Of a stretch of DNA of 64,000 nucleotides, positions 30,177 to 47,141 are shown one piece after another. Source of the DNA: an uncultured Actinomycetes bacterium (GTDB lineage Bacteria > Actinomycetota > Actinomycetes > S36-B12 > UBA10799); assembly GCA_946803585.1 (NCBI GenBank), contig CAMPEQ010000008.1, forward strand, positions 141,786 to 205,785, in the 5' to 3' direction. A program made the position numbers and the translations under genes. The notes under the pieces were generated by a model. The model was not told where the DNA came from. It saw only the letters and a list, made by a program, of their open reading frames with translations, and did no database searches. Each line of letters begins with the position of its first letter. Positions within the stretch are counted from its first letter, which is position 1.

Positions 30177-30179
30177 GGC

Positions 30180-31049
30180 ATGACCGACTTCGGAGTCGTA
30201 CTCCTCACCATGGGAAACCGGCCGACGGAACTGAACCGAGCCCTCGATTCCCTGGCTGCCCAGCAAGACGTCACGCTCGACATCGTCTGTGTCGGAAACG
30301 GCTGGCAGCCGACTGGGCTACCGGGCTATGTCAAGACCGAGTACCTTCCAGAGAACCTCGGGGTCTGTGGGGGACGAAATGCCGGAGTCGCCAGAGTCAA
30401 CGGCGAGCTATTGTTCTTCCTCGACGACGACGCCTGGTTGAGCGATCCGCACTTCCTCGCTCGAGCGCTTGCGCACTTTCGTGCCTGGCCTGACCTCGGC
30501 ATCGTTCAACCGCACGTTCACGATCCAGACGCACCGGTTGATGCTCGCAGGTGGATCCCCCGGCTGCGCAAAGGAGATCCCGCACGGTCGAGCTACGCCT
30601 TCACGCTATGGGAGGGTGCGATCGTTGCCCGCCGAAGCGTTTTTGACGCAATCGGCGGTTTCGGGAACGAGCTCTTCTTCTACCACGAGGGTATTGAACT
30701 CGCCTGGCGCTGCTGGGACCAGGGGAGCATCGTTTGGTACGCGGGAGACCTCGTTGCGCACCATCCCAACACCGAAGCGAAACGCCACGTCGACAACGAG
30801 TTCCACCGACTAATCGCCCGCAACCGTGTGTGGATTGCGCGACGTAATCTTCCTCCTGCGCTCGTCCCCCTCTACGTGGGGAGCTGGACCTTAGTTCAGG
30901 TTCTTCGGTCACGCTCTGATAGGCAAGGGCTAGCCGTGTGGATACAGGGATGGCAGGATGGCTGGCGGAGTGATCCAGGCACTAAGCGGCAACTCCGATG
31001 GCGCACCGTATGGGAGATGACCCGGCGAGGACGCGCACCGATCATCTAG
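30180..31049 (+). CDS. Glycosyltransferase family 2 (WbbL-like position)
   Basis: 289 aa. VVLLTMGNRPTEL..., FLDDDAW (DxD) and GGFGNELFFYHEGIELAWR motifs typical of GT2. Confidence 0.85.
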   Translation: MTDFGVVLLTMGNRPTELNRALDSLAAQQDVTLDIVCVGNGWQPTGLPGYVKTEYLPENLGVCGGRNAGVARVNGELLFFLDDDAWLSDPHFLARALAHFRAWPDLGIVQPHVHDPDAPVDARRWIPRLRKGDPARSSYAFTLWEGAIVARRSVFDAIGGFGNELFFYHEGIELAWRCWDQGSIVWYAGDLVAHHPNTEAKRHVDNEFHRLIARNRVWIARRNLPPALVPLYVGSWTLVQVLRSRSDRQGLAVWIQGWQDGWRSDPGTKRQLRWRTVWEMTRRGRAPII

Positions 31050-31180
31050 CCGCCAATTTCACCGGGCCGATGACGCCAACCAGGCGTACCCGGGTAACAT
31101 CTTGAGAAGGCCATTGCCGTGCAACGAACCTTAGATTCAGCCAATCCGGAGCAGACTCCAACTTGTGAAGGGAGCCACAT

Positions 31181-32311
31181 ATGGCGACCGCAGTTTTGCA
31201 CATTGGGACGATGAAGACCGGCACAACGTACCTCCAACAGCTACTGAGCACCAACTCACAACTGTTGGCAGAACAAGGCTGGACACTTCCGGACTTCTTG
31301 CCAGCTAATCATCAGGCTTTCCCGCTCTGTTTCTCGGACAAGACCAGCGACCAGCACAGGACTCGCGGCATGTACGACAGTGCCTCTAAGAACAAGGCCG
31401 CGCTCGACCTGCGGGTTGCGTTGAAGAAGCAGATGAACAGTAGCGCAACTCCCCCCAGCCAACAAAAATGGATCATCTCAAGCGAGCAGTTCACGATGCG
31501 TCTACGATCCCAAGCCGAAATCGCGAAGGCCGTCACGTTTTTCCGGGAAGTGTTCGATTCGGTCTCGGTTGTCGTCTTCTTTCGGCGCGCAGAGTTCATG
31601 CTGCCAAGCGTGCTTTCCCAGCGCATAAAGGATGGGCTCAAGGGCTCCTGGAGTTGGCAGTTTTGTGAGAACCGGCTAGAGCGACTAGACCCGATCCAGA
31701 TCTTTGATGCGTGGTCGGCCGCTGTGGGCGAGGAGAACATAACAGCGGTTCCGTACCTCGAACGCTACAAGTCTGACTCCACCGACTTTCTCGGAGCAAC
31801 CAGTCGAGCGACCGGTATCACCTTCGATAGTCAATGGATAGAACCAGCCCTACTCGAATCAAATCGATCACTCAGTGCGGAAGGGATGGGGTTTATCTCA
31901 CTAACTAACCAGTATGTTCCGCGTCGCGCACTCGATGATCGACGGGCAGCGATCGTCAATCGGCGCCTTAAGAAGAAGATCATGTCAGTAGCTGATCCGG
32001 CACCGTTCGTTCCAGATCAAGAGACACTCGATCGAGTAACCGAATACTGTTCCGAGTCTTGCAACGAACTCGTAGGCCGATTCCCGGAGGATCCGCTGTG
32101 GCAGGCCTGGTTAGACCAGGTCCCGAAAGGAGCGGCCAAGGCCACTCCAACCACACTCACTGCCGAGCGAACCCTCGAGCTCGCAGTTCAAGTCGCCAGC
32201 CCAAACGGCCCTGTCTCGTGGGGCGAGCTCTACGGCGTCCCGCCATCTCGGAAGGAACGAATGCACCGATATTGGGATATCGCCAAGACCAAGGCGTCTC
32301 GTAAGGCGTAG
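31181..32311 (+). CDS. Uncharacterised KTGTT P-loop protein, paralogue 1 (sulfotransferase-like motifs)
   Basis: 376 aa. VLHIGTMKTGTTYLQ, WIISSEQF, VVVFFRRAEFMLPSVLSQRIK, NRSLSAEGMGFI, DPLWQAWL. Aligns full-length with 32321-33436 and 38676-39794. GGGAG RBS 8 nt upstream. Confidence 0.85.
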   Translation: MATAVLHIGTMKTGTTYLQQLLSTNSQLLAEQGWTLPDFLPANHQAFPLCFSDKTSDQHRTRGMYDSASKNKAALDLRVALKKQMNSSATPPSQQKWIISSEQFTMRLRSQAEIAKAVTFFREVFDSVSVVVFFRRAEFMLPSVLSQRIKDGLKGSWSWQFCENRLERLDPIQIFDAWSAAVGEENITAVPYLERYKSDSTDFLGATSRATGITFDSQWIEPALLESNRSLSAEGMGFISLTNQYVPRRALDDRRAAIVNRRLKKKIMSVADPAPFVPDQETLDRVTEYCSESCNELVGRFPEDPLWQAWLDQVPKGAAKATPTTLTAERTLELAVQVASPNGPVSWGELYGVPPSRKERMHRYWDIAKTKASRKA

Positions 32312-32320
32312 CGCTTCGCC

Positions 32321-33436
32321 CTAGCGGCCTCGACCAAGGAGACGTGCTCCACGCAATCGACTCAAGACCCCCGCTTGGGCTACCTCATCACGAGCCGGAG
32401 GCGCGGTCGGTCTCCCCCAATCCATCGGCCCACTCGGCTGTGAAGTAAGTGCCATCACTTCAACAATGCGCTCGGGCGTGATCTCGGGTGTGGCCCCCTC
32501 GTGCCATTCCTGCGATAGCCACTCTTGCCAATCGCAGTCGCCACCGAACTCCTCGATGAAGGAGACATTGGTGCCAGCCACGTTTTCCATCACGCGTTCT
32601 CTTAATTCAGGTGAGAGTCCTAAGGACGCCCCTGGCGTAAGTCCGCCAATCTTGTCGATCAAGTTCCGTCGACGCCGCATGTTCGACTGACCATCGCTAA
32701 TTCGCGGCACGAGTGGATTCACGAGCCTCAGGAACGCAGTCCCCTCGGCACTCAAACCTGGATTCGTTCGGCGACCGCGGGCACTAGCTTCGGTTGGCTG
32801 CAGCAACTCCGTGGGCAGCCCAGCAGCCATAATGAAGTCATTGATAAGGCTTGATTGGGCGCCCTTGTAGTTCTCCTGAAACGGCCGAATAGTAAACGTG
32901 TCGGCGCCAGCGGAAGCCCAGTCCTGACACATGGTGAGGTAGTTGCGCTTTTCTAGCGCGCCGGAAAAGTACTCCCAATCCCAAGCGTCAACCCCGCCCG
33001 CCTTAATCACCTGCGAATACAGACTCGGGAGCATAAAGTCTTGACGGCGAACGTAGCAGAGTAGCTCGATCTCATCAAAATAGGTACGAAAGAAGTCAAT
33101 AACACGAGCCATCCCCGCTGGGTCGCGAACTGTCTTTGTGAAGTGCTCCGTTGAGACAATCCAACGGTCCCTTTCGGGCGCCGAGGCCAAGCCCACCCTG
33201 ATGTCGGCGATCTTCGCATCAGCGGTTATCTGGTCCGTGACTCCGTATAGTCTGTGCCACGAACTTGTGAAGCTGTCGGAGAATGGAAGTGCCATCTCGG
33301 TGTGGTTTGCCCGCGATAGAAACGCTGGGTAGCCCCAGCCGAGCTTGGCTAGGTCTCGACGGTGAGACCGCAGGAAGTGCTGCAAGGACGTCGTTCCGGT
33401 CTTCCCAGTCCCGATGTGCAGCAGTAGTTTCGACAC
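32321..33436 (-). CDS. Uncharacterised KTGTT P-loop protein, paralogue 2
   Basis: 371 aa. LLHIGTGKTGTTSLQ, WIVSTEHF, LLCYVRRQDFMLPSLYSQVIK, NPGLSAEGTAFL, CDWQEWL. Confidence 0.85.
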   Translation of the reverse strand: MSKLLLHIGTGKTGTTSLQHFLRSHRRDLAKLGWGYPAFLSRANHTEMALPFSDSFTSSWHRLYGVTDQITADAKIADIRVGLASAPERDRWIVSTEHFTKTVRDPAGMARVIDFFRTYFDEIELLCYVRRQDFMLPSLYSQVIKAGGVDAWDWEYFSGALEKRNYLTMCQDWASAGADTFTIRPFQENYKGAQSSLINDFIMAAGLPTELLQPTEASARGRRTNPGLSAEGTAFLRLVNPLVPRISDGQSNMRRRRNLIDKIGGLTPGASLGLSPELRERVMENVAGTNVSFIEEFGGDCDWQEWLSQEWHEGATPEITPERIVEVMALTSQPSGPMDWGRPTAPPARDEVAQAGVLSRLRGARLLGRGR

Positions 33437-33533
33437 GAAGAGAGGCTACAGGAGTGCGGCCCCATGGGCCGGATGCGCCACAGCTCGGGGCCTCACGAGC
33501 TAGCCACGCCACCGTACTAGCTAACATAGGCGA

Positions 33534-34847
33534 ATGGTGCGAATTCGCTCTGACTTTGACGCCACGCGTGGCTACTTCCAACGAACATTCCGTGAGCGCA
33601 AGGCGCTAAAGCTGCTGCCCCCCGACTCTGCGCCGGACCACTACCGCGACAAGGAAGTCAAGGTGGCGATCTATTTCGGTAGTGTCGCCAACCTCGCATA
33701 TCAGGTGAACCAATGGCTGGACCCATTCAGAGCGGTACTTGATAAGCACGAGGTCGTCCTGGTGACGAGAAAGCCAACCGCAGCCCTGGAATTCCTCCAA
33801 GCGGGTTGGCCGAATGTTGTCTACCTTAAGAAGTTGTCCGATGTTGATGAATTCATGCATCGGCACCCCATTCAGCTGATGTTCTATGTGAATAACTCCG
33901 GCGCGAACCTAGGCATGCTCGCCTTCCCTGCGACGTTCCATATCTCGCTGGGACACGGCGAGTCAGACAAGACAGCCTCATCAACAAACCAATTCCGCGC
34001 GTACACCTTTGTATTCGTCCCTGGTGAAGCCGGTCGGAGAAGGTTTGCCAATCAACTGTTGGACTTCGACTGGCAATATCGAATCAGGGAGGTAGGCCGA
34101 CCCCAAATTGATACTGAGCATCCGACCCACCCGATACCTGAATCTGATCGGATTAGCGTGCTATACGCGCCCACCTGGGAGGGCGATAAGCCGACAGGGC
34201 GATACGGGTCGACGGCGAGCCACGGAGTCGCCATGGTTTCATCGCTACTGAGCTCAGGACGGTATCGGGTTGTGTTTCGTCCGCACCCGCTGGCAGGTAG
34301 TCTTCTACCAGCCGAGAAGGTTGCGACGCTTGAGATCCAGAAACTACTACTGGATGCCAACAAACAGGACCCCCATGCTCACCATGTGCTGGACGACTCA
34401 CCGTCTTTCGGGTGGCACCTGGCACAGCTCGACATGTGTATTTCTGATATCTCATCGGTTGCATTCGACTGGATGGCCACTGGAAAGCCCCTCATCGTCA
34501 CTGAACCAGCAGCAGAATCAACAATTCCGAGTCCAACCGGAATCTCGGTCGCACTGCCACTCCTCCGCACAGACCAAGCGCAGAATGTGGCGGATATCTG
34601 CCAGACACTGTCAACGGACGGGATGCCAGATTCGTACCGTGATGCGATTCGGTACTACTTCGGCGATACCTCGCCCGGCTCAAGCAGGAAACGCTTCCGA
34701 GACGCTGTAGACGCCCTCCTCGAGGAGCACAGCAGAGCTTTGGTGGCCCGTAGCACGCGCCGTGAGGTGATCGCGGCCACGCCCATTACAGAGCAATTCG
34801 GTCATCCAACCCCACGGAATCACAACCACGAGGAAGACCGGAGCTAG
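33534..34847 (+). CDS. CDP-glycerol/ribitol glycerophosphotransferase-family protein (TagF-like), copy 1
   Basis: 437 aa. LGHGESDK, VLYAPTWEGD and FRPHPL motifs as in TagB/TagF-type polyol-phosphate transferases. Paralogous to 35986-37206. Confidence 0.78.
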   Translation: MVRIRSDFDATRGYFQRTFRERKALKLLPPDSAPDHYRDKEVKVAIYFGSVANLAYQVNQWLDPFRAVLDKHEVVLVTRKPTAALEFLQAGWPNVVYLKKLSDVDEFMHRHPIQLMFYVNNSGANLGMLAFPATFHISLGHGESDKTASSTNQFRAYTFVFVPGEAGRRRFANQLLDFDWQYRIREVGRPQIDTEHPTHPIPESDRISVLYAPTWEGDKPTGRYGSTASHGVAMVSSLLSSGRYRVVFRPHPLAGSLLPAEKVATLEIQKLLLDANKQDPHAHHVLDDSPSFGWHLAQLDMCISDISSVAFDWMATGKPLIVTEPAAESTIPSPTGISVALPLLRTDQAQNVADICQTLSTDGMPDSYRDAIRYYFGDTSPGSSRKRFRDAVDALLEEHSRALVARSTRREVIAATPITEQFGHPTPRNHNHEEDRS

Positions 34848-35896
34848 CTTCGCCACTTCTTGGCTTTACGTTTAAAGCCCTTCTTTACGCGATTTAGGTT
34901 GACTTCTCCCGTGCTTGCCCCCGCAGCATCGTACGACCAAATGACCACTTCCCAGCGTGTTGGAAATACGTGCGTCCGAACCTTCGCTTTTGTCAATGAA
35001 CCACTCACGGTGACATATCGCTGCTTTGTCCACGTTCCCTTCTTCTTGCTGAGGTGACGGTAGCCGATCCGGTAACTCAGAACCCGATCACTGTTAATCC
35101 CGGTGCGTTTCCATCTCGCCACAAGCTTCTTGGGCTTGTGCTTGACTTGGACTTTTGAAGGTGGGCCCGCCTGACGCGGAGCATTCCAACACCCCGTTCC
35201 CTGGCTGTACGCCCAACGGGTACCGAACGGGATCGAGTTCCAGCTCGAGAAGCCGAGAACTGCAGGAAACGTCGTCCCTGAACCATCCACGCACGCCCGG
35301 AGCTCACCCGGGTCATCTGCATCTCGGGTGGGGAAGGGGCCAGTGTCCTTGGTCGCGAAGTGAAGTGAGTTGGAGGTGCACGAATCGCCACCGAAAGTGC
35401 CAATCGGGGTATCCTCGGACACCACTTGGCCGTTGCTGACAAGGATGGAACCTAGATGGACGTAACGGCTGGAGTCACCTCCTCCGTGATCAATCCAGAG
35501 GGAGCCACCGTCACACTTGCTGGCCGGATCCGTGATGTTCGCGATTCCCCCACCAGCTGCATAGACCAATGTCCCGCGGGGAGCGGTGAAGTCCAACGCC
35601 CAGTATCCGTGGTCAGGCTTGCCGCCGCTGATGCAGTTGCTATAGACGCAGCCGATCCTTGCGCTATCACGAAATGGCAAGTAGCGGGGCTTCGTGAAGA
35701 CATCTCCAGGCGGAGTCGTTTCCACCGACCGCGCAGCCGACGCGCTCGGGGGTGCCTCCGGATCCGCCGCGTTCGCAGATGACGTTCCAACAACACCACT
35801 GCCCAGCAGCGCCCCCACGCTTACCAAGGCTCCAAGGACCAGCCAGCGTCGGTTCCCACTTCTCAAACGAACCATGTCAGGAATATCGGCTTGCAT
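34844..35896 (-). CDS. Secreted M23/LytM-like peptidase-domain protein with a basic FN3-like C-terminal domain
   Basis: 350 aa. Signal-like N-terminus (RRWLVLGALVSVGALLGSGVVGTSSANA). LytM-like core HGYWALDF...GTLVYAAGGG...IDHGGGDSSRYVHL...SLHF. The C-terminal ~100 aa are Lys/Arg-rich with a W..Y.I.Y..W FN3-like pattern. Confidence 0.7.
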   Translation of the reverse strand: MQADIPDMVRLRSGNRRWLVLGALVSVGALLGSGVVGTSSANAADPEAPPSASAARSVETTPPGDVFTKPRYLPFRDSARIGCVYSNCISGGKPDHGYWALDFTAPRGTLVYAAGGGIANITDPASKCDGGSLWIDHGGGDSSRYVHLGSILVSNGQVVSEDTPIGTFGGDSCTSNSLHFATKDTGPFPTRDADDPGELRACVDGSGTTFPAVLGFSSWNSIPFGTRWAYSQGTGCWNAPRQAGPPSKVQVKHKPKKLVARWKRTGINSDRVLSYRIGYRHLSKKKGTWTKQRYVTVSGSLTKAKVRTHVFPTRWEVVIWSYDAAGASTGEVNLNRVKKGFKRKAKKWRS

Positions 35897-35985
35897 ACTT
35901 ACAATCCTTAGCGAAAGGCTGCAACTTTTCCTGTTGGCGAAGAGTAACTGCCAGAATCTTTGCGAAGGTCACTCGCACGCCACCT

Positions 35986-37206
35986 CTACAAGCGACCCAA
36001 CGCCTTCAACCCGGCGTCTCGTGTCCGAAGGACGTCCTCGGTCGCATTGCGGAATCGCGTCATTGCCGAACCTTCACCAAAGCAGTACTTCCGCAGATCG
36101 TCGAGCTCCGCCGCCCCCTCGTCGGTGAGCTGACTGTCTAGGAGACCAACGAGGTCAGGACCTGAGTTAGGGGCCCAGCGCGGCAAGTTCGCAGACATAC
36201 TTGTGGAATCAACCAATGCTTGTGGCGAAGCCGGGTCACAAATTACTAGCGGTTTACTCGTGGCCAGCCAGTCGAACGCCACAGCCGATACATCAGTAAC
36301 GCAAAAATCGGCGACCTCGGCCTGCCATCCGAACTCAGCACCTAGATCAGTGAAATGACCGGCTCCGCGATCTTGGGAGGCTGCCGCAGCGATTCTCTCG
36401 GTCAAGGCCTTTACAGCCTTGCCGTAATCCGTCCGGACATCGCCACTAAGGGGATGGGGGCGAAAGATGATTCGTACTCGTCCATCGGCCAAGGCTTCGT
36501 CGATTACATGACGGCCGTGCGATTCAACCGACCCATACGCGTTCGAAGCCCGGTCGCCCTCCCAACTGGGTGCATAGAGCAAGGTGAACTGTTTTGATGT
36601 GGGACCGGCCAAGTTCGATCGCCTCGTTGGAAAATCCACCTGCGGCCGTCCAATTGGGACAAGTCGTTGATTGGCATCAAAATTGATCAATCGACGTCGG
36701 ATACGATCGATGGCTGCCTGACCTGCCACAAAGGCAAAGTCATAGGACTTCAGCTGATTAGACGCCGACACCGCGAGCTTGTCCGACTCGCCGTGACCCA
36801 GGTAGACGTGAGTGACTCCAGGGTGCGACAACATCGCGAAGTTGCTCTTGTGGTGATTTACGTAGAAGACCGCCCGAATGCCGCGCCGCTCGACTAGTGG
36901 ATCAAGCTCAGAGTGCCGCCCTGCGTATTCCACCGGGAGACAAAAATCTGGATCTTTCAGCGCCTGAACTGCAGAATCGGCGCACCGAAAGACCACCTCT
37001 ACGGCGAATTCCTCGCTCAAACTTTTTAGGGGCTCCACCCATTGACGAAGCTGGTACATGTTCTGAGCTGGGTCGCCAAAGTAGACGGCTATGTCGAAAC
37101 GGTCGACCTCCGACGCTTGCTGGCCGCTCAGCCGAGTTAGCTGCCTTCGCGCGGCTCGCTCGCTGATCTTCCGTTTCGCCTCACGAATCTCGGCCGTACC
37201 ACGCAT
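35986..37206 (-). CDS. CDP-glycerol/ribitol glycerophosphotransferase-family protein (TagF-like), copy 2
   Basis: 406 aa. LGHGESDK, LLYAPSWEGD and FRPHPLSG motifs. The start abuts the stop of the upstream synthase gene (37207). Confidence 0.78.
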   Translation of the reverse strand: MRGTAEIREAKRKISERAARRQLTRLSGQQASEVDRFDIAVYFGDPAQNMYQLRQWVEPLKSLSEEFAVEVVFRCADSAVQALKDPDFCLPVEYAGRHSELDPLVERRGIRAVFYVNHHKSNFAMLSHPGVTHVYLGHGESDKLAVSASNQLKSYDFAFVAGQAAIDRIRRRLINFDANQRLVPIGRPQVDFPTRRSNLAGPTSKQFTLLYAPSWEGDRASNAYGSVESHGRHVIDEALADGRVRIIFRPHPLSGDVRTDYGKAVKALTERIAAAASQDRGAGHFTDLGAEFGWQAEVADFCVTDVSAVAFDWLATSKPLVICDPASPQALVDSTSMSANLPRWAPNSGPDLVGLLDSQLTDEGAAELDDLRKYCFGEGSAMTRFRNATEDVLRTRDAGLKALGRL

Positions 37207-38679
37207 CTAATCGTTGCCTTTCCCAACTCCCACTTCGGAGCCTGCTTCCAACTCCGCCGCCGCGAACGGATCCACCCGTCTGACATCGATGATGTGGCCG
37301 GTTTGCTCCGCAAGTAAGACGTCGACAGATGTTGCGGCAACTACTTCGCTCTCCAGAAGACTCCCTGGCGGTTCAACTCCGAAAGCGCTCGTTCTCATTG
37401 GGGTGCCCGTTCGCTCGGGATTGATACAGTTCACCCTCACACCGGCCCGCGCCCACTCGTCAGCGAGTGCCTGCGTTAGGTTCACCAGTCCCGCTTTCGC
37501 AGATGAATACAAGCTATAACTCGCCCTCCCCCGCGTGTAGGAACTAGACGTGAACAAGAGTAGAGAACCTCTGGAAGCCGCTAGGTGAGGGTAGAACTCT
37601 TGCGCGATGAAGATCGGCGCGAGGTAGTTGACGCCAGTTGCGTGATAGATGGTCTCCTCGGATGCCTCAGTCAACGAACCGCGCGGCAACACCCCAGCAG
37701 TATTGACGACGAAGTCAACCCGACCCGTCTGCGCGACTACCGTCTTACAAGCGGCCCGCACATCGTCTCGGTTCTCGACGTGTGTACCAGTCGACGAGCG
37801 CGAGAAGGAGAATACGTCCGCACCATACCCCCGCGCAAGATCAGCAATGTCTCCGCCGATTCCATAAGAGCCACCGAAGACCACGAGCGTCTTGCCAGCA
37901 AGTTCTTTCTCGTACTCTTCGCGGCTACGTCCCTCTGGCCGGTCGTGGCTACCAAGCTGAAACAACTTATCTGCCACAAAGACGTCGATTGGTTCGGTGA
38001 CTTTCATGTTCTGCTCGCTACCGTGAACAACGGCAATCGGAACCTCGGGCAGATACCGGAGCACGACGGTGCAGTCATCGGTCGCCACAAATCCAGGGTC
38101 AGCTGCAGCTTTCGCATATGCCGCTCGGATAACGGAGAGTTTGAAAGCTTGAGGCGTCTGCCCTCGCCGCAGTAGGTGACGCGGAAGTACATCGACTATC
38201 TGCTCAAGGCGGCCGGTCGAACTGTCAGCTGTTCGGGGCTCGTCGACTTGAATGATCGTGTCAGCAGAGGGAATCGCAGTATCGACGGCAGAGTAGGTTT
38301 CGAGCGCCCTAATCAGGTCTCGAATGATTCGCTCAGACAACAGCGGGCGGACCGCATCGTGAAACAAGACATTGCATTCCTGCGCACCCAATGCCTCGAT
38401 CGCACGCTCGGTCGTCCCGTTTCGAGTATCAGCTCCCTCAAGGATCTGGGTAACCTTTTGATACTCGCCGTTCTTCACAATCTCGCGAATCGCATCGAGA
38501 TGCCCCGGCGCCATCATGACGATGATCTCGTCGATCGCGTCGGAGTCCTCTAGCAGCGCAATCGTGTGCTCCACGATTGGACGCCCTGCCACCTTGATTA
38601 GTTGCTTGGGAATGGAAAGCCCGACTCTTGCACCCACGCCCCCTGCCAGCACTACAGCTGCGTTGCGAACCCTACTCAT
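37207..38679 (-). CDS. Fused IspD/TarI-type cytidylyltransferase + SDR reductase (Bcs1-type CDP-ribitol synthase candidate)
   Basis: The N-terminal half has AVVLAGGVGARVGLSIPKQLIKVAGRPIVEHT. The C-terminal half is a classical SDR (VFGGSYGIGG, NTAG, YSSAKAG). I chose the ATG at 38679, which forms an ATGA overlap with the upstream stop. The track ORF extends to 38736. Confidence 0.8.
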   Translation of the reverse strand: MSRVRNAAVVLAGGVGARVGLSIPKQLIKVAGRPIVEHTIALLEDSDAIDEIIVMMAPGHLDAIREIVKNGEYQKVTQILEGADTRNGTTERAIEALGAQECNVLFHDAVRPLLSERIIRDLIRALETYSAVDTAIPSADTIIQVDEPRTADSSTGRLEQIVDVLPRHLLRRGQTPQAFKLSVIRAAYAKAAADPGFVATDDCTVVLRYLPEVPIAVVHGSEQNMKVTEPIDVFVADKLFQLGSHDRPEGRSREEYEKELAGKTLVVFGGSYGIGGDIADLARGYGADVFSFSRSSTGTHVENRDDVRAACKTVVAQTGRVDFVVNTAGVLPRGSLTEASEETIYHATGVNYLAPIFIAQEFYPHLAASRGSLLLFTSSSYTRGRASYSLYSSAKAGLVNLTQALADEWARAGVRVNCINPERTGTPMRTSAFGVEPPGSLLESEVVAATSVDVLLAEQTGHIIDVRRVDPFAAAELEAGSEVGVGKGND

Positions 38680-39794: not shown

Positions 39795-39839
39795 TAGCGA
39801 CCTCTCGATGACTCGAAGACGATGAGCGCAAAATCAAGG

Positions 39840-41021
39840 CTATTTGGCAGCCCCTGATGTGCCATTCATGAGCGCTCGCGCAATCACGATTCGCTGGATC
39901 TGGTTCGTCCCTTCGTAGATCTGAGTGATCTTCGCGTCCCGCATGAACCGCTCCACGGGGTAATCCTTGACGTAGCCGTAACCGCCGAAGATCTGCACGC
40001 AATCCGTTGTCACCTTCATCGCAACGTCGGAGGCGAAGCACTTGGCCGCAGCACCAAAATAGGTAGCTGAGGTTTCGCCGCGCTCGCTGACCGCTGCTGC
40101 GTGATAGACGAGCTGGCGGGCTGCCTCGATCTGCATTGCCATATCGGCCAACATGAACTGAACGCCCTGGAAGTCGGCGATCGGCTTGCCGAACTGCTCG
40201 CGTTCCTTGGCGTAGCCAATAGCTGCATCGAGTGCACCTTGGGCGAGTCCAACCGCTTGGGCTCCGATACAGACCCGTGTGACATCGAGTGCCTTCATCG
40301 CGGTGACCCAGCCAGTTCCCTCGTCCCCGACCATCCGGTCGGCCGGAATACGCACATTGTCGAGGAAGATCTGGCGAGTTGGTGAGCCCTTTATCCCCAG
40401 CTTGCGCTCGGGTGCTCCGAGACTGAATCCCGGATCGTCTGCGTGGATCACAAATGCCGAGATCCCTCGCGAACCTAGATCCGGATTCGTGCTGGCCATC
40501 ACGGTGTAGTACGTAGAAATCCCCGCATTGGTGATCCACATCTTCGAGCCGTTGAGGACCCAGTCATCGCCGTCCCTGACTGCCGTCGTCTTCATACTGG
40601 CAGCGTCGCTTCCGGCACCAGGCTCACTCAAGGCATACGAGAACATTGCCTTCCCGCTGGCGACCTCCGGCAGATACCGAGCCTTGACCTCCTCGCCTCC
40701 ACCTACCAGCAGTGGTGTGGTGCCGAGTTTGTTGACAGCCGGGATGAGCGAACTCGATCCACAGACGCGGGCAACCTCCTCAACCACGATGCACGCGGCC
40801 AAGTTGTCGCCGTCGGATCCGCCATATTGGTCGGGGATGCTGATTGCGTGGAAGCCGGATGCGGCGAGCGCCTCGTAGACATCCCATGGAAACTCGCCGG
40901 TGTCGTCGATTTCCGCTGCCCGAGGGGCGATCTTGTCCAGTGCTAGTTGACGGATCGCGCTACGAAGTTCGACGTGCTCTTCGGAAAGTTGGAACGCGTC
41001 AAAGTCAGGATTCTGTGCCAT
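39840..41021 (-). CDS. fadE25: Acyl-CoA dehydrogenase (FadE25-like)
   Basis: Start taken at the internal ATG at 41021 (MAQNPDFDAFQLSEEH...). Long colinear similarity to my memory of M. tuberculosis FadE25 (LIPAVNKLGT, YALSEPGAGSDAASM, ERKLGIKGSPT, FMLADMAM, RFMRDAKITQIYEGTNQIQR). Confidence 0.9.
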   Translation of the reverse strand: MAQNPDFDAFQLSEEHVELRSAIRQLALDKIAPRAAEIDDTGEFPWDVYEALAASGFHAISIPDQYGGSDGDNLAACIVVEEVARVCGSSSLIPAVNKLGTTPLLVGGGEEVKARYLPEVASGKAMFSYALSEPGAGSDAASMKTTAVRDGDDWVLNGSKMWITNAGISTYYTVMASTNPDLGSRGISAFVIHADDPGFSLGAPERKLGIKGSPTRQIFLDNVRIPADRMVGDEGTGWVTAMKALDVTRVCIGAQAVGLAQGALDAAIGYAKEREQFGKPIADFQGVQFMLADMAMQIEAARQLVYHAAAVSERGETSATYFGAAAKCFASDVAMKVTTDCVQIFGGYGYVKDYPVERFMRDAKITQIYEGTNQIQRIVIARALMNGTSGAAK

Positions 41022-41191: not shown

Positions 41192-42541
41192 ATGCCACAA
41201 ACGACCGTTGACCCATCGCACACTCGCCCGAAACTCGCTGTGATCGGGACGGGGTATCTCGGCGCCGTCCACGCAGCGTGCATGGCCGACTTCGGTTTCG
41301 AGGTCATGGGAATCGATATCAATCAAGCAGCCATCGAGAAGCTTGCATCCGGTGACGCGCCCTTCTTCGAGCCGTACCTAGAAGAAGTCCTTAGCAGGGC
41401 GCTAGCTAGCGGCAAACTGACGTTTAGCACCGACCTGCAGGCAGCTGCTGAGTTCGCGGATATCTTCTTCATTTGCGTCGGAACCCCACAGCAATCCGGT
41501 TCCAACGCCGCTGATGTTTCCTATGTCGACGATGCCGTCATGGGGCTTGTCGATGGGCTGTCACACGATGCGCTTATCGTCGGCAAGTCAACCGTCCCGG
41601 TCGGTACAGCTGCACGGTTAACTGACTATGTCGCGGCCAACGCGAAGAGTGGGGTCAGTATCGAGATCGCTTGGAATCCTGAGTTCCTGCGGGAAGGCCA
41701 CGCAGTTGCCGACACCCAGCACCCCGACCGGATTGTCGTGGGGTCAACAAGCGAGCGCGCTGATAAGGCGCTGCGCGAGGTATATGCCATACCACTGGCA
41801 GACGGGGTCCCCTACATCTCGACTGATCTAGCGACGGCCGAGCTCGTCAAGGTCGCTGCGAACTCATTCCTTGCAACCAAGATTTCGTTCATCAACGCGA
41901 TGGCTGAGGTCTGCGACAAGGTCGGCGCAGACGTGAGTATGTTGGCCGAAGCTCTGGGCCACGACAGCCGTATCGGTAAAGAGTTCCTCCGTGCTGGAAT
42001 CGGGTTCGGTGGGGGTTGCCTGCCAAAGGACTTGAGAGCATTCATGGCTCGAGCTGGAGAACTCGGCGTAGCCGACACCTTGTCCTTCTTGCGCGATATT
42101 GATGAGATCAACCTGCGGCAACGGGAACGGGCTGCCCAGGCCGCAAAGGCGATGTTCGATGGCGCCCTAATCGGCCGAAGAGTGGGAGTCCTAGGAGCAG
42201 CCTTCAAACCAAACAGTGACGATGTTCGCGATTCGCCAGCGCTGCACGTCGCCGCCAGTCTGCACCTACAGGGCGCCCACGTAAGGGTCTACGATCCGCA
42301 CGCAAACGCAAATGCCGCCGCGGTGTATCCAACTCTGGACTACCGAGAGAACTACTTGGAGGCCTGTGAGGGCGCGGAACTGGTCCTCCTTCTGACGGAG
42401 TGGGCCGAGTTCGCTGCGATCGACCCCGACGAGTTGGCTGCAGTTGTGTCGACTAAGCGAATCTTCGATGCCCGCAACGCCCTGGACCCGGCGAAATGGC
42501 GGGATGCCGGCTGGGAGTTCCGCGGCCTGGGTCGGCCGTAG
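41192..42541 (+). CDS. ugd: UDP-glucose 6-dehydrogenase
   Basis: The internal ATG at 41192 gives MPQTTVDPSHTRPKLAVIGTGYLGAVHAACMA (Rossmann GxGxxG). Later GFGGGCLPKD catalytic Cys motif. The 116-aa upstream extension in the track ORF is Arg-rich junk. Confidence 0.9.
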   Translation: MPQTTVDPSHTRPKLAVIGTGYLGAVHAACMADFGFEVMGIDINQAAIEKLASGDAPFFEPYLEEVLSRALASGKLTFSTDLQAAAEFADIFFICVGTPQQSGSNAADVSYVDDAVMGLVDGLSHDALIVGKSTVPVGTAARLTDYVAANAKSGVSIEIAWNPEFLREGHAVADTQHPDRIVVGSTSERADKALREVYAIPLADGVPYISTDLATAELVKVAANSFLATKISFINAMAEVCDKVGADVSMLAEALGHDSRIGKEFLRAGIGFGGGCLPKDLRAFMARAGELGVADTLSFLRDIDEINLRQRERAAQAAKAMFDGALIGRRVGVLGAAFKPNSDDVRDSPALHVAASLHLQGAHVRVYDPHANANAAAVYPTLDYRENYLEACEGAELVLLLTEWAEFAAIDPDELAAVVSTKRIFDARNALDPAKWRDAGWEFRGLGRP

Positions 42542-42588
42542 CGGGGCCAAACCGACACCCGCGAACTACCTCTCTCCTGGAGGGGCGG

Positions 42589-43371
42589 CTAGAAGTCCTC
42601 AAGCGTCGTTGCTGCGTCTGGGTTTACCCCGGTCTCGCCGTTGTAGGCAGCAATCACTTCTTCCGGCTCGCCCATGAGCTTAAGCTCACCCTTCTCTAGC
42701 CACATTGCGTCGGTGCACATCTCTCGGATTGTGCCTAGCGCGTGCGACACAACGAGCATCGTGTGAGCCTGACTCAACAGTTCATCCATCTTGGCCATCG
42801 CTTTGGCCTTAAAGTAGGCGTCTCCGGTCGAGAGCGCCTCATCCACAATCAAGATATCCGGCTCCATATGGACGGCGACGGCGAACGCGAGCCGACTCGA
42901 CATACCAGAGGAGTAAGTCTTGACCGGCATTTCCATAAAGTCCCCGAGTTCGCTCCACTCGGCGATCTCGTCAGTCTTGCGCTCCACTTCAGCTCGGGTA
43001 TAGCCGGCCGCCAATCCACCTAGGACGATGTTCTCGTAGCCAGTGAGCTTGTTATTGAAGCCGACTCCGAGCGCCAGCAGCGTGCTAACTCGCCCACGGA
43101 TCTCGATTCGTCCCTTGGTCGGTGGGAGAATTCCGGCAACGGCCCGAACGAGGGTCGATTTCCCCGCGCCGTTGCGGCCAATGATGCCCAGGACACGACT
43201 TCGCGGCAGCTCAAAACTGACGTTCTTGACTGCCTCTACCTCACGCACCATGCGCTTTCCGCGACCGGCCCGCCGGACGGCCTCCCGCATCGTCGGACGG
43301 CGCTCAAAGGTCGTGCGATAGGTGACAGACAAGTTCTCTACGCGAACCGCGGGCTCAGATCCGGACGGCAA
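42589..43371 (-). CDS. ABC transporter ATP-binding protein, polysaccharide/teichoic-acid export type (TagH/Wzt-like)
   Basis: 260 aa. Walker A GRNGAGKST, signature YSSGMSSRL, Walker B ILIVDEALS. Confidence 0.88.
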   Translation of the reverse strand: MPSGSEPAVRVENLSVTYRTTFERRPTMREAVRRAGRGKRMVREVEAVKNVSFELPRSRVLGIIGRNGAGKSTLVRAVAGILPPTKGRIEIRGRVSTLLALGVGFNNKLTGYENIVLGGLAAGYTRAEVERKTDEIAEWSELGDFMEMPVKTYSSGMSSRLAFAVAVHMEPDILIVDEALSTGDAYFKAKAMAKMDELLSQAHTMLVVSHALGTIREMCTDAMWLEKGELKLMGEPEEVIAAYNGETGVNPDAATTLEDF

Positions 43372-44236
43372 AGTCCCGCTCCCTCGTTAAGAAGACGTAT
43401 AGCCCTACCGCAAGCGAGGCAAGCGCCCAGATAGAAGAGACAATCCAGGCTTGCCCGGCAGGCCATGATCCATAGACAAACGCCGCACTAAACGACGCGA
43501 CGAGGTCGAAGACCGGATTCACGATCCGGATCCAATCAAACCGCTCTGGTAGCTGACTGACCGACCACAGGATCGGGCAAGCGTAGAACCAAAGTCGCAT
43601 GAAGTACGGCATGAACTGGCGCGTATCCCGGAAGTACACCTGTGCCGTCGCCAGCATCAGGGCCATTCCCGTTGAGAAAACCAACATGATCGCGACGAGT
43701 GGAATACACGCAATCCAGCTCCAGTGTGGACGCACCCCGGTAGCGAGTGCGAGCACAATCAAAACGCCAATGGCCGGAAGTAGCTCAGAGATTGATGTGC
43801 GTACAGCGGATAGCGGGAGGAGCAGCTTTGGGAATGAAGTATTCGTCACCATCTTCCCGGCGCTCTGGACGGACTTCGCGCCGTACTTGGTGCAGTTCTG
43901 CAATATCTCGAAGAAGAACAGACCGCCAACCAGGTAGATGAAGAAGTTCGGGATTGCTGCACCACGAGCCAAGATAAGGACCAACAGGTAGTAGACCACG
44001 CTCATAAACAGCGGATCTAGAATCGACCAGAGGCGCCCAACCCAGGTGTCTTGCTGATTCGCACGTGCAGTCGATGTTGCCATCTCGCGGAGGAATTCGC
44101 GGCGGCGCCACAGTTCTCGTACGTACGCCCCCATGTGCGGAGGTAGTCCGGCCTTGTACGGCTCGTAGACATGGAAGTTGCTGTTGAACTCATCGTCTCC
44201 GGCGGAGTCCTTAGTACCGACGGCGGTACCTGTCAC
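43355..44236 (-). CDS. ABC-2 type transporter permease (TagG/Wzm-like)
   Basis: 293 aa, about six TM segments. 17-nt overlap with the ATPase gene. GTG start with GGGAG upstream. Confidence 0.85.
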   Translation of the reverse strand: MTGTAVGTKDSAGDDEFNSNFHVYEPYKAGLPPHMGAYVRELWRRREFLREMATSTARANQQDTWVGRLWSILDPLFMSVVYYLLVLILARGAAIPNFFIYLVGGLFFFEILQNCTKYGAKSVQSAGKMVTNTSFPKLLLPLSAVRTSISELLPAIGVLIVLALATGVRPHWSWIACIPLVAIMLVFSTGMALMLATAQVYFRDTRQFMPYFMRLWFYACPILWSVSQLPERFDWIRIVNPVFDLVASFSAAFVYGSWPAGQAWIVSSIWALASLAVGLYVFLTRERDFAVRI

Positions 44237-44372: not shown

Positions 44373-45476
44373 TCAAAGGCCGTACTTGGGTTGTGGTGAG
44401 TCGGGAGTCTCTGCGAGCTGTGGGAGTTTAGGCCCGGAGGTGAGGAATCCGACACCCCATGCCATGTGCATCGTCACCAAGGCAACCGGGACTCGCAGTC
44501 GAACCTCCGGGGACTCACGGCGAGCGACCACCACTCCACCAAGTGCCACGGCACCGAGGTACGCGACGGGGGCGAGCCACCCCAACCGAGCCAGCCGTGT
44601 GAGGGAGTTGCTGCGGCTCCTCTCTACCAACCCGCTCGCTAACCCTGCCCCGATTCCGACGCCAACAGCGATCACGGCCGCTGGGGGTGCGAGATATCGA
44701 AATTGGGCCGTGCCGCGGTGCTGGCGCATGATTTCTCTGCGCCACGTTCCGTATTGGAAATACTGGCGCGCGAGCGCCTTGACCGTGGGACGCGGGCGAT
44801 AAGAGACATGCATCGCCGGGTTGAACCACACCAAACCTCCGCTAGCTCGGATTCGATGGTTCATTTCCCAGTCCTGAGCGCGATCAAACCGCTCGTCATA
44901 GCCGTTGACCCTGCGAAGCGCTGACGCTCGGAATACGCCGAGATAGACGGTGTGAGCCTCGCCCTCTTGGCCTCCGATGTGGAATGCGGCACCACCGACA
45001 CCGATTGGCGAGGTCATGGCCACTGCAACCGCGGATTCGAACGGGGTCTCCCCTATCGCAGCCATCACGCCGCCAACGTTGTCGGCTCCAGTCCGCTCCA
45101 ACGTCTCTAGCGCCACCTTGATGTAGTCGGGCGGAAGCTCACAATGACCGTCCACCCGTACAACGACCTCCGCGTTCGCCTGAGCGAGGGCCGCGTTGAG
45201 CCCTGCGGGGGTTCGCCCTGTCGGGTTTGGCACCGTCTTGACCCGTGAATCCGAGGCACACAACTGCGCGGCGACTCGGTCAGTCTCGTCGGTAGAGGGC
45301 CCAAGCGCCAAAATCACTTCTAGTGACCCATCGAAGTCCTGCTTGAGAATCGCGCCAACTGCGGTCGAAAGGTAGTTCTCTTCGTTCAGTACCGGCATCA
45401 CCACCGAGACGGATACTCGAGGATCGTCGCCGGCGTCATCGGCCGCCATAGTCGACCCGACAGGTGGGTTGGTCAT
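44373..45476 (-). CDS. Glycosyltransferase family 2 with C-terminal TM segments (ExoA-like)
   Basis: 367 aa. VSVVMPVLNEENYL, VRVDGH and QDWEMNHR motifs, followed by hydrophobic C-terminal helices. Confidence 0.82.
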   Translation of the reverse strand: MTNPPVGSTMAADDAGDDPRVSVSVVMPVLNEENYLSTAVGAILKQDFDGSLEVILALGPSTDETDRVAAQLCASDSRVKTVPNPTGRTPAGLNAALAQANAEVVVRVDGHCELPPDYIKVALETLERTGADNVGGVMAAIGETPFESAVAVAMTSPIGVGGAAFHIGGQEGEAHTVYLGVFRASALRRVNGYDERFDRAQDWEMNHRIRASGGLVWFNPAMHVSYRPRPTVKALARQYFQYGTWRREIMRQHRGTAQFRYLAPPAAVIAVGVGIGAGLASGLVERSRSNSLTRLARLGWLAPVAYLGAVALGGVVVARRESPEVRLRVPVALVTMHMAWGVGFLTSGPKLPQLAETPDSPQPKYGL

Positions 45477-45737
45477 TGCACGAATCCTACTGCGCGAGGC
45501 GATTCTATCTAGGTCGGCGTGCCTGCCTCACCTGATCAGAACGTCGACCTAACATCTGCCAAGAGCGTGGCGATGCCCAAACTCGGCCGTGAGAGCGTTC
45601 CATCACGGAACGAGCGGGCGCAACCGTGCGTCGCAGTGTCAGGGTGCTCGAATCGTTGGCAATCCCGGACACTGAGTGACGATTCCAAGCCAAGGCAGCG
45701 CTAGTTAGCGGATCGACGACCAACCGAAGGGGCAAGC

Positions 45738-47141
45738 ATGGCCGCCACGACCGACGCACCAAAGCGCCCACGTCGGCGAACGATTGCCGTCGTTGTCGCG
45801 GCTGGAGTGCTTGCCGTCTCCGGTATCGGTTACGCGACTGCCTCAGAAGTGACCGGACAGGTCGAACGTGTCGATGTCTTTTCCGCGGTAAAGAATCGCC
45901 CGGACAACGATGGCGGCACGAATATCCTCCTCATAGGCTCTGATGACCGCACCGGGTTGACCAAAAAGGAACGCCGCGAACTCCACGTCGGTCAGGGCGA
46001 ATACGGTCGCAACACCGACTCGATGATGGTGGTTCATATCGCCGACGACGGATCAATCGGCGTCGTGAGTATCCCACGCGACTCATACGTCGAGATTCCG
46101 TCGCACACGGGCCCGACCGGAGTCACCAGCGACGCCTCGAAGCAGAAGATCAACGCCGCCTACAGCATCGGCGGACCAAGCCTGGCCGTTCAAACGGTCG
46201 AGCAAGCCACTGGTGTTCATATTGACCACTACGCCGAGATTAACTTCGCAGGATTTGTCTCAATGGTCGACGGCTTGGGCGGAGTTCCGATCTGCACCAA
46301 GACCCCCATAGTTGACGAGAAAGCTGGACTCGATCTTCCGGCCGGTGAGCAGACCCTCGACGGGGCACAAGCTCTCGGCTTTGTGCGGGCTCGTTACTTT
46401 GACCCGAGTGCCGACCTAGGCCGGATGAAGCGCCAACAGCAGTTCCTCGGGGCGATGTTCAACCAGGCCAGTAGCCCGAGCGTATTGATCAACCCGCCCC
46501 GCCTTCTCTCATTCCTCAATACCGCAGCCGGGTCCATCACCGTTGATGACAACTTCAGCAATGCCGAAATGTGGGGTTTGATGGGCAAACTACGCTCAGT
46601 AAGCCCCTCTGCAATCACTTTTCAAACCGTTCCGGTTGGGGCAGAGGTTAATGCTGGTGGAGTCGGGTCAGTAGTCGAATGGGATACGGCGAAGTCCGAA
46701 GAACTGTTTGCAAAGCTCAAGACCGGTGATCCGTTGACGGCCAGCAGTAAGAAGAAGGACACCACTGAGACAGTTGAGATCGCACCGGGCAACATCTCTG
46801 TGAGGGTCTACAACGGCTCGACGGTATCCGGCCTCGGCAGTAAGGCCGCCAAGGAGCTTGAGGAAGCGGGCTACTCCGTGACCGGAACAGTTCTGAATGC
46901 TCAGAAGAGCACCGGAACTGAGACCGTGATCGAGTACGACCCGCGGTACAGCACTTCGGTCAAAACCCTGGAAGCTGCGTTCCCCAACGCTACTTTCAAA
47001 GAGGTCGATAACTTCGGTCGGACCTTCCGGGTAACAGTCGGCAGCGACTACGACGGAGTCAAGCCGGTCACGGTTGCCGGTGTCTCGGGCGATGCTGATC
47101 CAGATAAGCCTCAGACCGCCGCAGACGATCTTTGCGCCTAA
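45738..47141 (+). CDS. LCP-family (LytR-CpsA-Psr) glycopolymer ligase, copy 2
   Basis: 467 aa. TM anchor, NILLIGSDDRTG, RNTDSMMVVHIADD and SIPRDSYV motifs, and a C-terminal LytR_C-like domain. Confidence 0.9.
   Translation: MAATTDAPKRPRRRTIAVVVAAGVLAVSGIGYATASEVTGQVERVDVFSAVKNRPDNDGGTNILLIGSDDRTGLTKKERRELHVGQGEYGRNTDSMMVVHIADDGSIGVVSIPRDSYVEIPSHTGPTGVTSDASKQKINAAYSIGGPSLAVQTVEQATGVHIDHYAEINFAGFVSMVDGLGGVPICTKTPIVDEKAGLDLPAGEQTLDGAQALGFVRARYFDPSADLGRMKRQQQFLGAMFNQASSPSVLINPPRLLSFLNTAAGSITVDDNFSNAEMWGLMGKLRSVSPSAITFQTVPVGAEVNAGGVGSVVEWDTAKSEELFAKLKTGDPLTASSKKKDTTETVEIAPGNISVRVYNGSTVSGLGSKAAKELEEAGYSVTGTVLNAQKSTGTETVIEYDPRYSTSVKTLEAAFPNATFKEVDNFGRTFRVTVGSDYDGVKPVTVAGVSGDADPDKPQTAADDLCA

Follow-up and report, generated by a model that had tools for sequence, protein, structure and literature searches.

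A predicted ribitol-phosphate wall glycopolymer module with sulfotransferase-fold paralogues in an uncultured actinobacterium

Introduction

What surface polymer is encoded between the conserved TIGR03089 gene and purE in an uncultured Actinomycetes bacterium, and do the genes for it constitute one system or two? The genes in question lie at positions 30180–47141 of a 64,000-nucleotide stretch of contig CAMPEQ010000008.1 (assembly GCA_946803585.1), referred to here as the window. An initial annotation had described them as a teichoic-acid-like locus split in two by a core acyl-CoA dehydrogenase gene (fadE25) and bracketed by two LytR-CpsA-Psr (LCP) ligases. Every gene that it listed was recovered, in the listed order, from the open reading frame (ORF) listing together with Pfam and NCBIfam scans, and all 16 genes fall into the families stated; the Pfam families Glyphos_transf, LytR_cpsA_psr, ABC2_membrane, IspD and adh_short were each matched at the expected genes.

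Wall teichoic acids (WTAs) set surface charge, serve as phage and toxin receptors, and control autolysins, and to our knowledge almost nothing is known of those made by the abundant uncultured actinobacteria of freshwater and soil. We propose that the locus is probably a single module for a ribitol-phosphate-containing wall glycopolymer—a WTA in the broad sense—in an uncultured actinobacterium that is not a mycobacterium. This lineage would then possess a ribitol-phosphate module that is complete and whose inner cassette is hypervariable, the same core being present in Micrococcaceae and Nocardioidaceae, and an unannotated sulfotransferase-fold family has been repeatedly wired into it.

CDP-ribitol supply and polyol-phosphate transfer

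The 490-residue protein encoded at 37207..38679 (minus strand), here called IspD-SDR, carries a cytidylyltransferase domain fused to a short-chain dehydrogenase/reductase (SDR), with Pfam matches to both IspD (147.9 bits) and adh_short (105 bits) on the one polypeptide. The nearest solved relatives of its N-terminal half are ribitol-5-phosphate cytidylyltransferases (TarI 6xhp, E-value 4.5e-27, and 4jis), and its C-terminal half is an SDR reductase. By family, fold, and conservation the fusion is predicted to belong to the enzymes that form CDP-ribitol out of ribulose-5-phosphate, NADPH, and CTP. A fused tarIJ, encoding a putative bifunctional CDP-ribitol synthase, is linked to ribitol WTA in Streptomyces (bioRxiv 10.1101/2025.04.24.650519), and the CDP-ribitol synthase activity of Bcs1 of Haemophilus influenzae type b has been biochemically characterized (PMC10299916). 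The IspD-SDR protein was scanned against one genome per species, which gave 167 stretches encoding a relative; 80 loci were kept, with relatives 61–86% identical to the query, and 20 window proteins were compared with these 80 loci using tblastn.

Two genes encode CDP-polyol phosphotransferase-like proteins, TagF-like 1 (TagF1; 33534..34847, plus strand; ~437 residues) and TagF-like 2 (TagF2; 35986..37206, minus strand; 406 residues), which are 35% identical to each other. Both score above the Glyphos_transf cut-off of 22.1 bits (36.2 and 37.0, respectively, covering positions 126–292 of the 367 in the profile), so the family membership on which the initial annotation had staked its reading holds. 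A precomputed PF04464 tag is present on most of the TagF-like homologues, and this ~400-residue subfamily is widespread in the Actinomycetes, where it is annotated as the CDP-glycerol glycerophosphotransferase family. An AlphaFold model of TagF2 built from 30 homologues has a predicted local distance difference test (pLDDT) score of 91.9, and its best Foldseek matches are TagF (3l7i–3l7m, 1e-12), TarL with CDP-ribitol (8va1, 3.6e-11), and Bcs3 (8a0m). The model thereby places TagF2 in the TagF/TarL fold, with a predicted GT-B-like two-domain catalytic core; TagF1, at 35% identity to TagF2, would share this fold. TagF1 has the invariant motifs HGESDK, YAPTWEGD, and RPHP, and the histidines within HGESDK and RPHP are invariant across the 30 TagF homologues; from their position in the motifs, they may be equivalent to the catalytic residues H444 of TagF and H300 of TarL. 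By family, fold, and conservation, the two ~400-residue proteins are predicted to belong to the enzymes for which a CDP-polyol is the donor of polyol phosphate.

Glycosyltransferases, exporter, and ligases

The window encodes two family-2 glycosyltransferases. GT2a (30180..31049, plus strand) scores 43 bits with Glycos_transf_2, against a cut-off of 23.3, and is represented by copies with 49–82% identity in both related and distant ribitol loci; a sequence search against solved structures returned no match for it. GT2b (44373..45476, minus strand) scores 79.2 bits with the same family and has weak sequence matches to TarS (5tze/5tz8) and GalT1. It always accompanies the pair of ABC genes, and copies with 47–71% identity adjoin ABC genes in related and distant loci. 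The pair in the window consists of the ATPase gene (42589..43371, minus strand; TagH/Wzt type; ABC_tran, 84 bits) and the ABC-2 permease gene (43355..44236, minus strand; TagG/Wzm type; ABC2_membrane, 41 bits against a cut-off of 26.9), which overlap by 17 bases; both products match their general families.

LCP-1 (28767..30176, plus strand) and LCP-2 (45738..47141, plus strand) are glycopolymer-to-peptidoglycan ligases by family, each with LytR_cpsA_psr and LytR_C domains: LytR_cpsA_psr scores 160.9 and 169.7 bits, respectively, against a cut-off of 24.6, and TIGR00350 scores 158.9 and 156.6 bits against 62.3. The two are 34% identical. LCP-1, whose copies in syntenic relatives are 53–85% identical, ends 4 bases before GT2a starts (30176 to 30180). 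The LCP protein of the Arthrobacter and Paeniglutamicibacter loci is matched better by LCP-2, at 31–37% identity. Both of the bracketing ligases are thus present as described, although only LCP-2 travels with the module and LCP-1 is part of the core block, conserved together with TIGR03089/ManB.

A pathway can be proposed from these components. IspD-SDR would supply CDP-ribitol, the TagF-like proteins would transfer polyol phosphate from the CDP-polyol, and GT2a and GT2b would add sugars, with the polymer presumably assembled on a polyprenyl-phosphate carrier that a TagO/WecA enzyme encoded elsewhere would prime. The polymer would be flipped by the ABC pair in the manner of TagGH or Wzm-Wzt and ligated to peptidoglycan by LCP-2, possibly also by the core LCP-1. 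The outline given by the initial annotation, of a wall glycopolymer that depends on a CDP-polyol, is exported by an ABC transporter, and is attached by an LCP ligase, is supported by the Glyphos_transf matches, the predicted TagF2 fold, and the TarI-type relatives of IspD-SDR.

The ribitol WTA systems of Staphylococcus aureus and Bacillus subtilis W23 (TarI, TarJ, TarL/TarK, TarS, TagGH, and LCP) share with this locus a CDP-ribitol supply, TagF-family phosphotransferases, a weakly TarS-like GT2, an ABC-2 exporter, and an LCP ligase. The reductase differs, being an SDR fused to the cytidylyltransferase here, whereas TarJ is a separate medium-chain dehydrogenase. The TagF-like proteins are also short (~400 residues) and far diverged (36–37 bits), no TagO, TagA, TagB, or TagD genes lie nearby, and the sulfotransferase-fold genes and an M23 protein are additional.

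The ribitol WTA loci of Streptomyces also have the fused reductase/CDP-ribitol pyrophosphorylase and variable tailoring genes around a core; there the variable part builds teichuronic acid on ribitol WTA (bioRxiv 10.1101/2025.04.24.650519), whereas here it consists of sulfotransferase-like paralogues and a UDP-glucose dehydrogenase (UGDH) is no conserved module member. The capsule locus of H. influenzae type b likewise shares a bifunctional CDP-ribitol synthase (Bcs1), a TagF-like ribitol-phosphate transferase (Bcs3), and ABC export (PMC10299916). That polymer is a Gram-negative group-2 capsule with a lipid anchor and a multi-domain polymerase, in contrast to the separate short TagF-like proteins and predicted LCP attachment here.

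Several observations weigh against the assignment of this locus to ribitol teichoic acid synthesis. IspD-SDR scores 134.6 bits with the NCBIfam ribitol-5-phosphate cytidylyltransferase subfamily, under the cut-off of 166, and the ABC ATPase falls short of the NCBIfam equivalog cut-offs for TagH (195.9 against 320) and PRK13545 (219 against 538). The cut-offs for the mycobacterial galactan exporter are missed as well (Wzt, 211.6 against 400; Wzm, 36.6 against 380); since no equivalog cut-off is reached, the pair would work like TagGH or Wzm-Wzt but be an orthologue of none. A Pfam scan of the larger ORFs across the 64 kb found no TagO/WecA, TagA, or TagD family member, as the initial annotation had also reported, and promoter and terminator scans gave nothing above chance. 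We take the TagF-like proteins to match a primase or oligomerase in size (TagB/TarF-like), so they need not be processive polymerases; a 640-residue form is present in relatives and is missing from the window, where the 437-residue TagF1 occupies the place of a 642-residue TagF-like protein in locus L002.

These sizes bear on the most serious alternative, that no poly(ribitol phosphate) chain is made and that each short TagF-like protein adds single ribitol-phosphate units to a GT2-built glycan. Such a pathway would yield either a poly(glycosyl-ribitol phosphate) or a polysaccharide branched with ribitol phosphate, perhaps capsule-like or lipid-anchored instead of being bound to peptidoglycan. 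Consistent with this, both proteins (406–437 residues) have one catalytic region, relatives use the 640-residue form or 1,200-residue GT2-TagF fusions, the sole match of the TagF profile to solved structures is Cps3D, and TagF-like enzymes also make Gram-negative capsules (PMC10299916). An LCP ligase accompanies the module in distant taxa as well, which argues for wall attachment instead, and the chain types are indistinguishable from sequence. We regard the single-unit mode of synthesis as possible, though doubtful, and retain a ribitol-phosphate-containing wall glycopolymer as the probable product.

Sulfotransferase-fold paralogues

The three genes that the initial annotation called P-loop paralogues and left unassigned are the most interesting part of the locus and its only departure from an otherwise unremarkable pathway. 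Their products—PL1 (31181..32311, plus strand), PL2 (32321..33385, minus strand), and PL3 (38676..39794, minus strand)—are true paralogues at ~36% identity, PL2 sharing the invariant motifs of PL1. Of the 20 family members examined, 13 match only Sulfotransfer_3 in Pfam (one also Sulfotransfer_1), and do so weakly, with a best E-value of 5e-6; the NCBIfam scan of the PL proteins gave no match.

An AlphaFold2 model of PL1, made from a 20-sequence alignment, has a pLDDT of 90.4. All six of its Foldseek matches in the PDB at E ≤ 0.001 are sulfotransferases: 3rnl (the best, at 2.4e-5), SULT7A1, the CurM sulfotransferase domain, NDST1, 3-OST, and tyrosylprotein sulfotransferase, with template-modeling (TM) scores of at most 0.64 on the target. 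Two motifs are nearly invariant in the family, H-I-G-T-x-K-T-G-T-T and R-R-x5-P-S-x-Y-S-Q (residues K12, T13, G14, R135/R136, and S143; in PL1, HIGTxKTGTT and RRxxxxLPSxYSQ), and in a formally insignificant hhalign comparison they align with GRSGTT and RDGRDVAAS of a canonical sulfotransferase family. We infer that they may be 5'-phosphosulfate-binding and 3'-phosphate-binding motifs; the K-T-G-T-T pattern differs from that of Walker A, GxxxxGK[ST]. PL1–3 are accordingly taken to be sulfotransferase-fold proteins with predicted motifs of the type that binds 3'-phosphoadenosine 5'-phosphosulfate (PAPS). The best fold matches of PL1 are to carbohydrate sulfotransferases (the heparan sulfate enzymes NDST and 3-OST, and bacterial Sulfotransfer_3 proteins such as 3rnl), with which the K-T-G-T-T loop and the Arg...Ser stretch are shared; the PL proteins differ from these in having only 9–13% identity to them, an extra C-terminal helical region of ~120 residues, and a teichoic-acid operon setting.

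Genomic context points the same way. On a Logan contig (L083:157-5541), two PL homologues lie on either side of cysNC (GTP_EFTU plus APS_kinase) and cysD; an FhaA-type gene on this contig is taken by us as a sign of actinobacterial origin. The family members P0016 and P0017 adjoin canonical Sulfotransfer_2/3 genes, and P0014 lies within a locus of sugar-nucleotide and GT2 genes. The reading of the PL proteins as sulfotransferases thus draws on the fold and Sulfotransfer_3 matches, the motifs, the cysNC-cysD flanks, and the canonical sulfotransferase neighbors.

Their link to the ribitol pathway draws on two further observations. The PL3 and IspD-SDR genes have a 4-base stop/start overlap (38676–38679), the IspD-SDR stop in turn abutting the TagF2 start, and 11 of the 80 loci, which were picked by IspD-SDR alone, have PL-like ORFs bearing the family motifs, often two to four of them, no more than 10 kb from IspD-SDR; Nocardioides loci are among the 11. 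Nocardioides and Segeticoccus loci (L075:1692-12652, L074, L077, L078, and L063) combine a GT2-TagF fusion of ~1,200 residues, one to four distant PL-like genes, and the CDP-ribitol synthase gene. The order in Nocardioides locus L075 is GT2-TagF fusion, PL, x, PL, PL, IspD-SDR, with another PL gene on the opposite strand, and the fusion there (1,206 residues) scores 255 bits with Glyphos_transf. A negative TagF profile had raised the possibility that PL-like proteins replace TagF in Nocardioides; this was ruled out by the 1,200-residue GT2-TagF fusions that Pfam identifies in L075 and L078.

The family is large. An exhaustive profile search yields 34,927 cluster representatives at E ≤ 0.001, of which 20,654 remain at E ≤ 1e-10 and 3,680 at E ≤ 1e-30, overturning the rarity suggested by the 18 matches of a word-indexed search; all named members are called 'hypothetical protein'. 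Five members (P0036, P0040, P0041, P0049, and P0051) are giants of 1,100–1,700 residues with three or four tandem copies of the domain.

Taken with the pathway above, PL1–3 may be PAPS-dependent O-sulfotransferases that decorate the polymer on ribitol hydroxyls or on sugar substituents. Sulfated ribitol teichoic acid is on these grounds the best reading of the locus, although unproven. More generally, we suggest tentatively, and with rather less than even confidence, that the PL clade (~20,000 clusters at E ≤ 1e-10), tied to CDP-ribitol synthase and TagF in Actinobacteria, installs ester sulfate on ribitol teichoic acids.

Several points tell against sulfation. PL1 and PL3 score 22.4 and 20.3 bits with Sulfotransfer_3, below the cut-off of 27, and PL2 does not match it; a sequence search of solved structures with the PL profile gave nothing meaningful; and the hhalign comparison with the canonical family has a probability of 4.7% and an E-value of 0.0085. 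None of the PAPS-synthesis genes cysD, cysN, and cysC is found among the scanned ORFs of the 64 kb window. Literature searches returned no report of a sulfated teichoic acid, so there is no chemical precedent.

Alternatively, the PL paralogues could have a sulfotransferase fold but draw on a different nucleotide-activated donor—for example, taking ribitol phosphate from CDP-ribitol and releasing CMP, or phosphorylating with ATP—which would make them teichoic-acid assembly or tailoring enzymes of a new class. The tight linkage to IspD-SDR, with its stop/start overlap and recurrence in 11 of 80 loci, would suit such a role, as would the scores under the curated sulfotransferase cut-off and the presence of nucleotide kinases among the weaker fold matches of PL1. 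However, K-T-G-T-T is a 5'-phosphosulfate-binding pattern of sulfotransferases rather than a Walker A motif, the Arg...Ser stretch matches a 3'-phosphate-binding motif that would be pointless for CDP-ribitol, two homologues flank cysNC-cysD, and a TagF-type enzyme is retained at every locus examined. A different donor therefore seems unlikely, and sulfate transfer remains our working proposal for PL1–3.

If this proposal is correct, ester sulfate on ribitol teichoic acid would be a wall-polymer modification not yet described, and the number of PL copies per locus (0, 1, 3, or 5) would make the sulfation pattern a fast-evolving surface code. Freshwater actinobacteria starved of phosphorus might also use sulfur to maintain an anionic wall, and a protein family with tens of thousands of members would gain its first function. 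PL-like genes adjoin tarIJ in several cultured organisms, namely Pimelobacter simplex ATCC 6946, Nocardioides albidus, N. carbamazepini, N. nematodiphilus, and N. ginsengisoli, and Arthrobacter rhombi is a further cultured carrier of a related locus. Should sulfation fail, the locus would simply add to the actinobacterial teichoic-acid clusters already known.

A canonical sulfotransferase gene (18283..19197, plus strand; Sulfotransfer_3, 78 bits against the cut-off of 27) lies outside the locus, 12 kb upstream, with pmmA-side genes on one side and a whiB-like ORF on the other. Its 248 homologues include many metagenomic proteins of 291 residues; one is named as a sulfotransferase of a Candidatus Nanopelagicales bacterium, and the family is common in Nanopelagicales-type metagenome data. 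Its presence suggests that the organism uses PAPS-type chemistry.

A probable single module around fadE as a likely bystander

The whole backbone of the locus is common to loci L002, L004, L006, and L073, and to L003 and L005 as far as their contigs reach, with protein identities of 53–93%. Its order is purK, purE, LCP-2, GT2b, ABC permease, ABC ATPase, (UGDH), fadE, (PL3), IspD-SDR, TagF, TagF, GT2a, LCP-1, TIGR03089, manB; L073 deviates in having a single TagF-like gene and GT2a on the other strand. As the fadE-centered layout is found in at least five related MAG species, it is ancestral to the species group and not an insertion peculiar to this genome, and the earlier suggestion that both sides of fadE are lineage-specific insertions is not supported.

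In more distant taxa the module lies together on its own. Arthrobacter rhombi (L076), Paeniglutamicibacter (L072), and L079 have the LCP, ABC permease, ABC ATPase, GT2b, GT2a, and IspD-SDR genes and TagF copies contiguously and in that order, with neither fadE nor UGDH. The same genes are found together in a different order in Mumia (L008 and L014) and L052, the LCP match being missing in Mumia.

The fadE gene (39840..41021, minus strand) encodes all three Acyl-CoA_dh domains, is 81–93% identical in syntenic relatives, and is absent from the distant versions of the module; the labels fadE25 and, for GT2b, ExoA-like are putative, the first following from domain architecture and its place beside purE/purK. 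It is intact in the window and in L002–L006, where it surpasses every other gene of the locus in conservation (84–93%). Two further relatives, L082 and L088/L089, were found through their PL homologues, and the IspD-SDR of L088/L089 is 90% identical to that of the window. In these close relatives fadE is a decaying pseudogene (L082, 9342-10150; L088:1597-2070); the L088 remnants correspond to residues 1–44, 78–105, and 312–391, at ~80% identity, within ~470 bp. The contiguity of the module in distant taxa and the decay of fadE in L082 and L088 indicate that the two presumed halves are one module, rather than a locus split into two parts as first described. The fadE gene appears to be a bystander housekeeping gene inside it that can be lost.

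The status of UGDH is less clear. The gene at approximately 41228..42541 (plus strand; the gene caller places the start at 41063) encodes a UDP-glucose or other nucleotide-sugar 6-dehydrogenase that scores 427 bits with TIGR03026 (cut-off 189.8) and stays below the cut-off of the TuaD equivalog (380 bits against 700). No copy is present in L073 or in any distant version of the module, so its membership is doubtful, and it is probably a second bystander surrounded by the module. For the same reason the uronic acid component that had been considered possible is unsupported.

Could the locus instead be two independent neighboring systems, with a ribitol-phosphate pathway on the left and a separate teichuronic-type polysaccharide pathway (UGDH, ABC pair, GT2b, and LCP-2) on the right? 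The position of fadE between divergently transcribed halves and the resemblance of UGDH to TuaD (380 bits) would fit this. Yet in Arthrobacter, Paeniglutamicibacter, and L079 the ABC pair, GT2b, and LCP genes immediately adjoin GT2a, IspD-SDR, and the TagF genes, and in Mumia the ABC pair and GT2b do so as well; UGDH is absent from those distant loci and from L073; and the decay of fadE in L082 and L088 leaves the halves joined, the left of which has no exporter of its own. We consider two systems very unlikely, and treat the locus as a single module in what follows.

The variable inner cassette

Genes between GT2a and fadE vary among relatives. The initial annotation had regarded the locus as accessory, a view that identical gene order across related genera would contradict; within this lineage the backbone is indeed conserved, and it is the inner cassette that varies. 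A gene for a membrane protein of the CDP-alcohol phosphatidyltransferase family adjoins GT2a in four loci (L002:15693-16538, L004:15399-16211, L073:10756-11562, and L076:7283-8383) and could encode a polyol-phosphate primase bound to the membrane; the window, L082, and L088 lack this gene and have LCP-1 and GT2a next to each other. Other tailoring genes include an epimerase/dehydratase in L004, two GT87 membrane glycosyltransferases in L007 (metagenome-assembled genome [MAG] ELA509; L007:3814-6599), and a polysaccharide pyruvyl transferase in Mumia quercus (L008:15912-17174).

The number of PL genes ranges from none in L003–L006 through one in L002 and L007 and three in the window and L082 to five in L088. 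The PL2 copies in L082 and L088 are 58% identical to that of the window, and the PL3 position is filled in L002 (55%), L007 (42%), and L082/L088 (73%). In L088, four PL paralogues stand in a row (L088:8578-13366; 374, 372, 372, and 375 residues) in addition to the copy at the PL3 position; the PL paralogues expand in tandem. This variation is the pattern of a serotype-like tailoring region, in which PL1–3 and the secreted M23-domain protein may together form the tailoring cassette.

The M23-domain protein (34844..35896, minus strand) matches Peptidase_M23 with 52.6 bits (cut-off 28.7) and has a signal-peptide-like N-terminus; its C-terminal ~150 residues are lysine-rich and without a Pfam match. 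Inspected by eye, it has S-L-H at the HxH position and an atypical first metal motif (HxxxD), and it may therefore be a non-catalytic LytM-type domain. It is present only in the window, L082, and L088/L089 (69% identical), with none in L002–L081. One possibility is a role in wall remodeling coupled to polymer attachment. The GC content across the variable cassette (window 31000–40000) is 0.555–0.59, a slight dip compared with ~0.60–0.63 in the flanks.

The organism and the flanking genes

The closest IspD-SDR loci, L002–L007 at 78–86% identity, are from uncultured MAGs labeled Actinomycetes, Actinomycetota, or Candidatus Nanopelagicales, as is L073 at 68%; the distant loci (61–74%) include some from Mumia, Microlunatus, Aeromicrobium, Nocardioides, Pimelobacter, Arthrobacter, and Paeniglutamicibacter. 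For the PL, TagF, and sulfotransferase genes, too, those homologues that have a name are labeled Nanopelagicales or Actinomycetes. The TagF2 sequence is also deposited with a 368-kb ENA metagenome contig, ERZ12590892 k141_223679. The organism, an uncultured actinobacterium of freshwater or soil, is no mycobacterium, and the mycobacterial frame in which the locus was first placed finds no support in these nearest genomes. Literature searches returned nothing relevant on Nanopelagicales teichoic acids, Nocardioides ribitol teichoic acids, or the Rv3274c/Rv3275c pair.

The order of genes in the window is secA, hpf, sahH, manA, pmmA, whiB-like, fbiC, cofD, fbiB, manB, LCP, fadE, purE, purK, birA, accD, maf, accA, which we take to match Rv3240c–Rv3285 of Mycobacterium tuberculosis. 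Despite this long shared order from secA to accA, an origin as a mycobacterial-type envelope locus, inserted as an accessory element into the Rv3264c–Rv3276c region of a member of the Mycobacteriales, is extremely improbable, given that the closest loci and the homologues just named all bear other labels, the ABC ATPase reaches only 211.6 bits of the 400 set for the galactan exporter, and the secA–accA block appears to be general to actinobacteria.

The flanks are otherwise as first described, with TIGR03089, which scores 151 bits (cut-off 85), and an LCP gene upstream and purE and purK downstream. The absence of mobile-element signatures is likewise upheld: the window contains no tRNA gene or flanking repeats, and no integrase or transposase family was matched by Pfam among its larger ORFs. 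Three ORFs in the conserved flanks, at 8124-8879 (minus strand), 25017-25979 (minus strand), and 62729-63481 (plus strand), encode proteins of 251, 320, and 250 residues with no Pfam match at E ≤ 1e-4. Two Rce1-like membrane proteins of the CAAX-protease family are encoded in the window (10032-10901 and 25946-26644, both on the minus strand), of which the second adjoins manB and has a 96% identical copy in L088.

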